From a bacterium (GTDB lineage: Bacteria; Patescibacteriota; Minisyncoccia; Phycocordibacterales; UBA1550): a DNA stretch of 64,000 nucleotides. Location: positions 9,317-73,316 of the forward strand of contig JAUSES010000013.1 in NCBI GenBank assembly GCA_030649835.1, in the 5' to 3' direction. Made by a program: the position numbers and the translations under genes. Below the pieces are notes generated by a model, which worked only from the letters and a program-made list of their open reading frames with translations, ran no database searches and was not told where the DNA came from. Shown one piece after another: positions 8,045-10,162 of this stretch (positions are counted from its first letter, which is position 1; the number at the start of each line of letters is the position of its first letter).

Positions 8045-10162
8045 ATGAAAGAAAACAATCAAGCTAAAAGTTTACGTCCAAGATTGCGTCCAAGACGTGA
8101 ATTTGTTAATTCAGGACCAGCTGGTTCGGAAGCGCGCGAGCGTCTTTTTTCGCTACGCAAAACTATTGAACACCATCGGTATTTGTATCATGTTGAAAAC
8201 AAATCTGAAATTTCCCCAGAAGCCCTTGATGCGCTCAAGCATGAGCTCGTGCTTATTGAAAAAGCATATCCCGGCCTCATCACCCCCGACTCACCATCCC
8301 AACGTGTCGCCGGTGCACCACTTAAGGGTTTTAAAAAGGTAAAACACACAGTAGCGCAGTGGTCTTTTAATGATGCGTTTGATGCGGAGGAAATGCGGGA
8401 GTTTGATACACGAGTAAAAAATATGCTCGCCCGCCAAGCCCCGCCCTTGGCAAGCTTGCCAAGGGCGGGGCTTGGCGAAAAAGCTTCCGTAACGTATGTA
8501 GCAGAACTCAAAATAGACGGACTGAAAGTCGTGCTGACATACGAAAAGGGGATACTGGTAAACGCAGCCACTCGTGGTGATGGGATCATTGGTGAGGATG
8601 TGACAACGAATGTAAAAATGATTGAGTCAATTCCGCTATCTCTCACCGAAAAAGTGTCAGGGGTATTCGAGGGAGAAGTGTGGATGGCAAAGTCCACCCT
8701 CGTGCGTTTAAACAAAGAAGAAATAAAAGCGGGTCGTGAGCCGTACGCAAACCCGAGAAATCTCGCTGCTGGAACGATGCGCCAGCTGGACCCTGGTATG
8801 GTAAAAGCACGCACACTTAATTCTTTTATTTACGACATCACTGCATTTGATGGTGATATCCCCGATACACAAATAGAAGAGCTCAAGCTACTGAAAAAAC
8901 TCGGATTCAAAGTTAATGGTCATTTTACTGAGTGTAAAAATATTGAAGAGGTAGTTGCGTATTGGCAAAAGTGGCAAAAACGTGCCCCCAAGGAGGATTA
9001 CTGGATTGATGGGGTCGTGGTAAAGGTAAATGAGAGGGAATATCAAGATGCATTAGGCTACACCGGCAAGGCACCCCGTTTTGGTATCGCGTTCAAGTTT
9101 CCCGCTGAACAGGTAACGACTGTTTTGGAAGATATTGTTTTACAGGTGGGACGCACTGGCGTGGTGACGCCGGTTGCGCATTTGCGCCCGGTGTCTGTGG
9201 CGGGCTCAGTTGTTTCTCGCGCGACACTCCACAATGAGGATGAAATTACTCGTCTTGATGTGCGCATTGGGGATACGGTTATTTTGCAAAAATCAGGAGA
9301 TGTGATCCCCGACATCATGGCGGTGGTAAAAGAAATGCGCACCGGAAAAGAGAAAAAGTTTGTGTTTCCAAAATCTATCGAGGACAGCGACGGCATCTCG
9401 AGCCCCATTCTGCGCATTCCTGGACAAGCGGCACATCGATGTGTAAACAAAAATATGTTCTCACAAAAGCGTCGCAAGTTTTACTACTTTGTTTCTAAAA
9501 AATGCTTCAACATAGATGGGTGCGGACCAAAGGTGATTGATGCACTTTTGGATGCAGAGCTCATAAGTAATTTTGATGATATTTTTACTCTTACGCTTGG
9601 GGATGTTCTTGCCCTCCCGAGGTTCGCGGAGCTTTCAGCAAAAAACCTTATCGAGGCGATAGATAATGCACGCACGATAACGCTTGGCAAGTTTTTAACA
9701 TCGCTTTCCATTGAGCATGTGGGGGAGGAGACGGCACACGACGTCGCTCTTGCTTTTGGAAGTATGGAGAAAATCCGCAAAGCAACATTCGATGATTTCA
9801 ATAATATTTATGGTGTGGGTGAGGTGGTAGCGCACTCACTTTCAAACTGGTTTGCTGACCCACACCACAGCGCCCTTCTCGGTCGACTACTTTCTGAAAT
9901 TAAAATTATCAATCCAGAACGCAAAGTAGCCAAAGGAAAACTTGCTGGGAAAACGTTTGTACTAACAGGAACAATGACTTCGATGTCTCGTGATGAAGCA
10001 AAAGATAAAATCCGCGCTCTTGGTGGAGAAATAGCTGAAAGCGTGTCTTCAAAAACAAGCTACGTGGTTGCGGGCGAAAACCCAGGGTCAAAATACGAAA
10101 AAGCGCAAAAACTTGGTGTCCCTATTTTGACCGAGCTAGAATTTTTAAAAATAGTGGAATAA
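8045..10162 (+). CDS. ligA: NAD-dependent DNA ligase LigA.
   Basis: The adenylation motif KIDGLKV is present. A C4 zinc finger (CVNKN…CFNIDGCGP), an HhH region and a C-terminal BRCT domain ([10 protein letters not shown]…) follow. Confidence 0.9.
8433..8476. repeat. Perfect 44-bp GC-rich palindrome (gccaagccccgcccttggcaagcttgccaagggcggggcttggc) lying in-frame within ligA.
   Basis: The arms are exact reverse complements centred on AAGCTT. It encodes [16 protein letters not shown] just upstream of the KxDG motif. It is far more GC-rich than its surroundings. Confidence 0.8.

Follow-up and report, generated by a model that had tools for sequence, protein, structure and literature searches.

The gene for the NAD-dependent DNA ligase LigA (705 aa; 8045..10162, + strand) in the window, which is the whole 64,000-nt stretch of DNA analysed here, carries a perfect G+C-rich palindrome at 8432-8477 that is translated in frame close to the adenylation lysine. 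The host organism is Candidatus Yonathbacteria-like and belongs to the Candidate Phyla Radiation (CPR)/Patescibacteria. With a probability of about 0.7, the palindrome belongs to a dispersed family of non-coding repeats that occurs in low copy number in Yonathbacteria-like CPR bacteria, resembles a homodimer of repetitive extragenic palindromes (REPs), or REPIN, and is presumably mobilised. Judged from its copies in metagenomes and genomes, the element is a dispersed repeat in related groundwater CPR bacteria and is not private to the window. It is a new family within the known REP-dimer/REPIN-like repeats; in-frame REP dimers in repair genes have already been published.

CPR/Patescibacteria genomes are about 1 Mb in size and are regarded as streamlined, and to our knowledge small dispersed repeats have hardly been documented in them. 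The reading given above implies that REP-type hairpin repeats and a gene resembling a REP-associated tyrosine transposase (RAYT) exist in the CPR, that the enzyme class thought to mobilise REPs is present in this genome, and that such repeats can be carried in frame by an essential enzyme of replication and repair, beside its catalytic lysine. This echoes a published but unexplained bias of intragenic REPs towards DNA-repair genes. Being short and clean, the 20-nt arms would make a suitable substrate for finding out what recognises repeats of this kind. As regards annotation, G+C-rich loops of CPR proteins that are rich in Pro, Ala, Gly and Leu may be repeat-derived rather than functional.

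The palindrome and its insertion in LigA

An inverted-repeat search returned 8432-8477 as a perfect inverted repeat of 46 bp with 100% complementarity and zero spacer, in which two 23-nt arms (8432-8454 and 8455-8477) meet in the centre AAGCTT. The boundaries, which were set from an alignment of eight copies with unrelated flanks and from a copy table, divide the element into three parts, none of which has an assigned strand: a left 20-nt unit (CGCCAAGCCCCGCCCTTGGC, 8432..8451), a variable centre (8452..8457, AAGCTT in the window copy) and a right 20-nt unit (GCCAAGGGCGGGGCTTGGCG, 8458..8477) that is the inverted left unit. The left unit forms a small hairpin with the stem GCCAAG/CTTGGC and the loop CCCCGCC. 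The G+C content is 74% in the palindrome versus 45.8% in the ligA coding sequence and 39-49% across the window. The first-pass annotation of this DNA had described an exact palindrome centred on AAGCTT with a G+C content far above that of its flanks; the perfection, the centre and the composition stand, whereas the length given there, 44 bp, was 2 bp too short.

The 22-nt half-site occurs only twice in the 64-kb window, both times in the ligA palindrome, and 100 dinucleotide-preserving shuffles of the window contained 0 matches to it. By our own arithmetic, about 1e-9 perfect 23+23 palindromes are expected by chance in 64 kb. When single-stranded, the palindrome region folds into a 21-bp stem, with energies of -54.2 kcal/mol (z=-9.4) as RNA and -32.9 kcal/mol (z=-8.4) as DNA. 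Stop codons are absent from all of its frames, which is unremarkable because 53% of random palindromes of equal composition also lack them. No family in Rfam, CRISPR repeats included, matches the element, the best score being a generic hairpin match of 26.8 bits against a threshold of 87. The element does not have the form of an intrinsic terminator, as a T tract on the + strand is missing and AAAAA directly follows it. A terminator consensus scan does not call it, and the sole nearby call is a site with a 5-bp stem on the - strand (8439-8425) that overlaps its left end. No match to the element was found in plasmid records, phage records or viral contigs.

The ligA open reading frame (ORF) is full-length (match to E. 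coli LigA 2OWO, E=1.6e-157), and Pfam recognises the adenylation, OB, HhH and BRCT domains. Codons 129-144 (8429..8476, + strand) encode the element peptide in frame, together with three extra bases on the left (GCC) that the ligA copies share. Downstream of the insert, the KIDG sequence of motif I (8510..8521, + strand) is intact with the adenylation lysine K156 at 8510-8512, 11 residues after the end of the insert. The HMMER alignment of E. coli LigA with the window LigA has a 15-residue gap exactly at the insert; the net gain relative to the closest insertion-free orthologues is 11 residues. When the window sequence was aligned with 33 other LigA proteins, 23 of them had no extra residues in this loop (17 residues from RVK to ELKID where counted), three (P0002, P0003 and P0053) had an identical or near-identical insert, and the remaining seven had different inserts at the same spot. 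The insert is absent in most orthologues of 79-84% identity. The DNA of one such empty site, in locus L004, reads CTC GCA AAA GAA CTT GGG AAA.

In the AlphaFold2 model of LigA (mean predicted local distance difference test score, pLDDT, of 69), residues 131-142 have a pLDDT below 50 and form a coil between the helix 114-129 and the KxDG strand 151-157. The length of this loop varies across bacteria. On the alignment, the palindrome-encoded residues are an insertion in ligA, and on the model the insert sits in a variable, predicted-disordered loop, with the catalytic motifs intact. The E. coli gap, the orthologues and the low-confidence coil agree in this respect with the earlier proposal of an in-frame insertion of about 15 aa shortly before the KxDG motif, placed in a loop.

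Other parts of LigA vary as well. At the four positions aligned to E. coli C408/C411/C426/C432, a single cysteine is kept (window 9260-9360, residues ~440-475), none of the four positions is invariant across the clade, and the retained one is Ala in several orthologues. No Cys4 zinc finger was found between OB and HhH, either in the window LigA or in its whole clade, and residues 372-473 have an AlphaFold pLDDT below 50. Two further variable spots (alignment columns ~640-700 and 1-70) hold lineage-specific inserts, examples being PRTDLKDLGPRSVLG between HhH and BRCT in P0027 and P0093 and the N-terminal insert VGVAPKGLARHDPAGS. In P0053 (L001 5870-5890), ELKIDK replaces ELKIDG; this change of the KxDG glycine is either a sequencing error or real, and it calls the full function of the L001 ligA into question.

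Copies at other loci and likeness to REP dimers

Species-representative genomes were scanned with a 30-nt core that spans the centre, by which centre variants are missed. One match was returned, at the same place in ligA of the Yonathbacteria metagenome-assembled genome L001, whose LigA is 72-73% identical to that of the window. A scan of JGI metagenome contigs with a 19-nt arm as the query revealed copies with both arms at four non-ligA loci on contigs of 41-47% G+C. Overall, the element is present in ligA of three further lineages (L001, L002 and L003). Elsewhere, it occupies three intergenic positions: between divergent clpP and rsmE-like genes (L010=L018), upstream of rplJ in a spacer (L014) and 5 nt beyond the stop codon of pyrG (L021). 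The gene of a 746-aa O-antigen-ligase/TPR membrane protein (L011=L015, and also L030) contains it in frame as well, and there another reading frame is used (SPSPALGDRAKGGAWR). The extragenic share is three of five non-redundant loci. The pyrG of L021 is 86% identical to that of the window, where the corresponding position holds another small hairpin. These copies with unrelated flanks, one of them in frame in another gene, are what the first-pass annotation had expected of a mobile palindrome; the opposite outcome, in which relatives would have these residues encoded by non-palindromic DNA and further copies would be missing, is excluded by them. A 30-residue peptide from the window gave 0 matches in a library of 1.84 billion representatives, and the peptides of the element in its three reading frames yielded no candidate from a collection of 5.8 billion proteins at an E-value limit of 10, queries this short being below the sensitivity of both tools.

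The alignment of eight copies and the table of nine distinct copies give the element the form CGCCAAGCCCCGCCCTTGGC, 5-6 variable bases and GCCAAGGGCGGGGCTTGGCG, with sharp boundaries. Across the nine copies, two of 360 arm bases are changed: one T>C in the left unit of L003, and the last base of the right unit in L014. The centres seen are AAGCTT, GAAGAC, GAGCTC, AAGTT, GACCGC, GCGGTC and GAATTT, and the two outermost bases of the centre covary as A-T or G-C. The unit can be written as (C)GCCAAG-CCCCGCC-CTTGGC(G), with 20-21 nt, a 6-7-bp stem and a 7-nt loop. Because each unit is itself a hairpin, the element can fold as one long hairpin (20-23 bp) or as two short ones, which is the architecture of a REP homodimer or REPIN. 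No direct repeat indicative of a target-site duplication flanks any of the nine copies. Eleven single-arm matches in the metagenomes, which lie on contigs of 55-69% G+C or in a Ser-rich low-complexity ORF (L009=L022), were treated as chance or unrelated. In L013=L026, a single-hairpin variant was found whose relation to the element is uncertain.

A REPIN is, by definition, a pair of inverted REPs whose units are conserved, whose spacer varies and which folds into a hairpin (Bertels & Rainey; PMC3337134). REP dimers with only 1-2 bp between the partners are known, and intragenic REP dimers encode 20-30 aa, many of them in DNA synthesis and repair genes including the DNA ligase of Opitutus terrae (Di Nocera et al., 2013; PMC3733652). 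The ligA element resembles these repeats in that its unit is short (20-21 nt, REP units being imperfect palindromes of 20-40 bp) and itself a stem-loop, and in that two inverted conserved units with a variable spacer of 5-6 nt form one long hairpin. REP copies lie mainly outside genes, a few being in frame within them, and the element was seen in both settings. In contrast, its stem and loop sizes are unlike those of the CGTC REP families, which have 8-9-bp stems and 4-5-nt loops (PMC3733652). A further difference is that its unit is conserved across species with saturated synonymous sites. Its host is a CPR/Patescibacteria lineage, and among the results listed by literature searches no paper described REP/RAYT systems in the CPR.

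Likeness to other palindromic systems is more limited. Rickettsia palindromic elements (RPEs) are palindromic and non-autonomous and are inserted in frame in unrelated genes, usually at fold-compatible positions; they are about 150 bp long and encode conserved peptides (PMC10969869). The element shares with them its in-frame presence in unrelated genes, namely ligA (four lineages) and the O-antigen-ligase-like gene (L011, L030). However, RPEs of ~150 bp occur only in Rickettsia, in ten families with a conserved peptide each, whereas the element is 46 bp long, unrelated in sequence, read in two frames at its two coding loci and hosted by the CPR. The earlier comparison with RPEs holds for the in-frame habit, and the closest class is that of the REP dimers and REPINs. 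[quoted passage not shown] IS200/IS605 elements produce no target-site duplication. The element differs in being wholly symmetric, so that left and right ends are not distinct, and in having no evident conserved target of 4-5 nt; the combination of terminal inverted repeats and target-site duplication that marks MITEs is absent from it.

The Y1 (HUH) transposase-like gene is RAYT-like, encodes 223 aa and is located at 4096..4767 on the + strand, 3.7 kb upstream of the ligA palindrome and between a pilin gene and a prepilin peptidase gene (window 3985-4885). Its product contains the motifs NHFHV and YIHLNP and matches Pfam PF01797 with 30.4 bits (cut-off 23). The sole NCBIfam match is NF047646 (REP-associated tyrosine transposase) at 36 bits, below the equivalog cut-off of 80. 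Direct repeats of ~60 nt flank the gene, and each holds the hairpin CTACCGAGGTTAAACCTCGGTGG (4045..4067 on the left and 4857..4879 on the right, with no strand assigned), which belongs to a repeat family other than the ligA element. A further copy of this hairpin lies in frame inside the RAYT-like ORF (4257-4279, encoding NHRGLTSLD), and a variant is found at 4781-4805. The gene is a candidate only for the class of the mobilising enzyme.

A REPIN-like element of this type would spread as single-stranded hairpin DNA. A Y1/HUH transposase (RAYT or IS200-type) could act on it in trans, or hairpin-templated copying could place it into sites with a pre-existing CCAAG...CTTGG mini-hairpin. Selection would then retain only in-frame copies in permissive loops, and the arms would stay constant because they are recognised by their sequence or are overwritten repeatedly by other copies, and not because the ligase needs them.

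Arm conservation, ligA history and competing explanations

Several observations weigh against a mobilised REPIN-like family. The GTAG/CGTC tag of REPs is absent from the element, whose unit starts with CGCC paired with GGCG. No RAYT gene flanked by the ligA unit was found, the sole RAYT-like gene having a different hairpin, and no RAYT homologue was found in the other loci examined. The copy number is apparently very low for a REP, with one copy in the 64-kb window and one per 62-168-kb contig, counts that refer to the window and to single contigs. Neither insertion nor excision was seen to take place among the copies compared. All four ligA copies have the three extra left bases in common, two of them share GGC on the right, and the right junction in both clades lies before the same conserved Gly; these shared features make descent or conversion, and not independent insertion, possible. 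Finally, at the same insertion site in the O-antigen-ligase genes of L030 (2771-2816) and L011 (5348-5393), all 40 arm bases are equal although the genes have diverged (90% amino-acid identity and a four-fold synonymous identity of 0.62), which would not be the case for a decaying selfish insert.

The ligA genes lead to a similar view of the arms. Four-fold synonymous identity among the compared genes is 0.31-0.42, which corresponds to saturation, and by our own arithmetic neutral descent of 40 identical arm bases in the window and L001 has a probability of about 1e-17. By these sequence comparisons, the conservation of the arms is not neutral, and it is independent of reading frame and coding status. 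The first-pass annotation had raised the alternative of a selfish hairpin tolerated in a loop; an insert that is purely selfish and decaying is a poor match for arms that are almost entirely invariant, even at an orthologous site. The centre of L030, GCGGTC, is the reverse complement of the L011 centre GACCGC, and its position between identical arms indicates that the asymmetric centre was flipped. L031, a closer relative (four-fold identity 0.70), is without the doublet. Where the right arm would lie, its sequence forms a native mini-hairpin, TCC AAG GGG ACC CCT TGG, which encodes SKGxPW, a motif widespread among more distant O-antigen-ligase homologues.

The same invariance, across species with saturated synonymous sites and at an orthologous site between genes of four-fold identity 0.62, could also reflect a nucleic-acid signal that is maintained by the host and is not selfish. 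Such a signal might be bound by a protein or form a cruciform, serve as a hairpin for the processing or stability of RNA, or be of the DNA-uptake type, and the ligA loop would merely tolerate it. We regard this explanation as possible but unlikely. Conservation regardless of frame or coding status is consistent with it, as is the position of ligA directly downstream of a type IV pilus cluster in competence- and pilus-rich bacteria. The uptake sequences of Neisseria and Pasteurellaceae are conserved across species, lie in coding and non-coding DNA, sometimes form inverted pairs and reportedly show enrichment in genes for genome maintenance; conservation, inverted pairing and a genome-maintenance gene are traits that the element shares. 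DNA uptake sequences and uptake signal sequences are 10-12 nt long (29 nt with flanks), however, whereas the unit of the element is 20 nt, always paired and present about once per 100 kb. A density of about one per 60-170 kb also contrasts with the hundreds to thousands of copies per genome of known uptake sequences (PMC2346458). Most close relatives are without the element at the same loci, no binding protein has been identified for it, it belongs to no Rfam family, and the missing + strand T tract sets it apart from terminators.

The history of the ligA copies bears on how the element moves. In a neighbour-joining LigA tree, which carries no support values, the four carriers are scattered, each beside insertion-free sequences, and P0053 is far from the other carriers. 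The insertion-free state is probably ancestral, as by our count the loop has 17 residues in insertion-free members of both clades and in the outgroup P0112. In L001, ligA shows a clean gain of 45 nt between Tyr and Gly; in the window, the same 45 nt are present and four native codons (AKEL) are lost. On this pattern, the ligA copies may represent independent targeted gains, or else descent or conversion with many losses.

The ligA loop is also a hot spot for unrelated inserts in other lineages (L005, L006, L007 and L008), several of which are palindromic. L008 (3335-3386) has a different palindromic insert at the same site, with 21-nt arms, and its right arm inverts the native left flank TGCTCGCGAAGGTCATTC. 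The loop of L005 (3313-3430) holds the palindromic insert TCACTTGGA-N9-TCCAAGTGA. The insert of L007 is 88-100% G+C, and that of L006 starts as the left end of the element (GCCCGCCAA) and then diverges. In L002, the palindrome of the element itself takes in 8 nt of the native left flank (TGCTCGCC / GGCGAaCA). Both in-ORF empty sites hold a mini-hairpin of the CCAAG..CTTGG type, which matches the stem of the unit. The incorporation of native flanks together with the mini-hairpins at empty sites suggests copying assisted by stem homology.

A stronger form of this idea, in which the arms are an actively maintained sequence-specific signal that is spread by hairpin-templated copying into CCAAG...CTTGG mini-hairpins, draws on the invariance of the arms over saturated synonymous divergence, even at the orthologous site. 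It strikes us as rather doubtful. If true, hairpin-guided copying would explain the use of the same ligA loop and Gly junction in distant clades and the native flanks in the palindrome, and it would amount to an undescribed homology-guided route of palindrome spread and of protein-loop evolution in CPR bacteria.

Local formation of the palindrome, with no transposition at all, is a poor candidate. According to this explanation, hairpin-prone DNA encoding AKELG (GCN AAR GAA CTT GGN) seeds fold-back or template-switch synthesis, with occasional gene conversion. The other palindromic inserts in the loop, such as those of L008 and L005, are consistent with it, and so are the extension of the L002 palindrome into its flank, the mini-hairpins already present at both in-ORF empty sites, the compensatory changes beside the centre and the flipped centre of L030. 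However, an identical 20-nt unit at unrelated loci, including its CCCCGCC loop, could not be produced locally, and in the protein consensus the native site of the L001 clade (KDxYG) is without such a mini-hairpin. Coincidental palindromy in a lineage-specific LigA loop, or an assembly artefact, has only the variable loop length across bacteria in its favour and can be practically dismissed, given the chance expectation of about 1e-9 and the recurrence of the same sequence in independent NCBI, JGI, ENA and Logan assemblies, at other loci and in another frame.

Other repeats and genes in the window and its relatives

A second G+C-rich palindrome lies in frame in the window at 62563-62604, in a multicopper oxidase gene (61210-62826). 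It has the form ATGCCCGCCCGAATGA-N10-TCAGTCGGGCGGGCAT and encodes MPARMTEGIQSGGH just before the copper motif HPIHFHG; its outer bases GCCCGCC...GGCGGGC equal the extended ends of the L001 and L002 ligA copies. A G+C-rich hairpin in copA (60672-60700) was considered as an insert and rejected, since comparison with solved CopA structures showed native coding sequence and no insertion. Not every G+C-rich hairpin inside an ORF of this DNA is therefore an insert.

Perfect or near-perfect hairpins also occur in the tRNA cluster (14570-15345). Two of them start at tRNA 3´ ends (14570-14621 with 25-nt arms and 14859-14904 with 21-nt arms), and a third lies between two tRNA genes (15051-15090). The 3´ end of the tRNA at 15211-15283 is repeated in inverted orientation 42 nt downstream (15262-15282 / 15325-15345). 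Tandem arrays of 7-nt units are found at 3163-3271, 5745-5777, 6943-7079, 11153-11184, 15516-15552, 45899-45934 and 55876-55911, mostly just upstream of genes or within annotated N-termini; the units are ATAGAAT, ATTCTCC, GAATGGA, ATTCCCC, AAGTCAA, ACTTTTG and GTAGAAT. At 7019-7079, 3.6 copies of GAATGGA face 4.6 copies of ATTCCCC as a hairpin ahead of a pilin-like gene.

Palindromes are also frequent in related contigs. In L007, two near-identical 43-bp palindromes (ACCCCCCCACCAACTTTCTC..GAGAAAGTTGGTGGGGGGGT, at 573-615 and 1206-1248) that differ only in the loop lie in adjacent pilin-like genes, and L018 contains four copies of AAAGGCCCGAAC-N5-GTTCGGGCCTTT within 2.3 kb (7080-9321). Very long perfect palindromes, with arms of up to 33 nt, are common in the spacers of relatives (for example, L005 7718-7783 and L003 5102-5169).

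Among the genes of the window, a heme-copper oxidase operon (COX2, COX1, COX3 and COX4_pro), a UbiA-family prenyltransferase, a copper P-type ATPase and the multicopper oxidase occupy 36899-48297 and 59057-62826; the prenyltransferase is possibly a heme O synthase. CPR bacteria are generally described as being without respiratory chains, which makes the oxidase operon unusual. At 23018-24782, the gene of a PD-(D/E)XK nuclease precedes an ORF (23913-24707) that has a LAGLIDADG-like domain and ends 5 nt before the tRNA gene at 24712-24782. A protein of 1630 aa that resembles alpha-2-macroglobulin, with A2M, bait-region and MG10 domains, is encoded at 28926-33818 in this small CPR genome.

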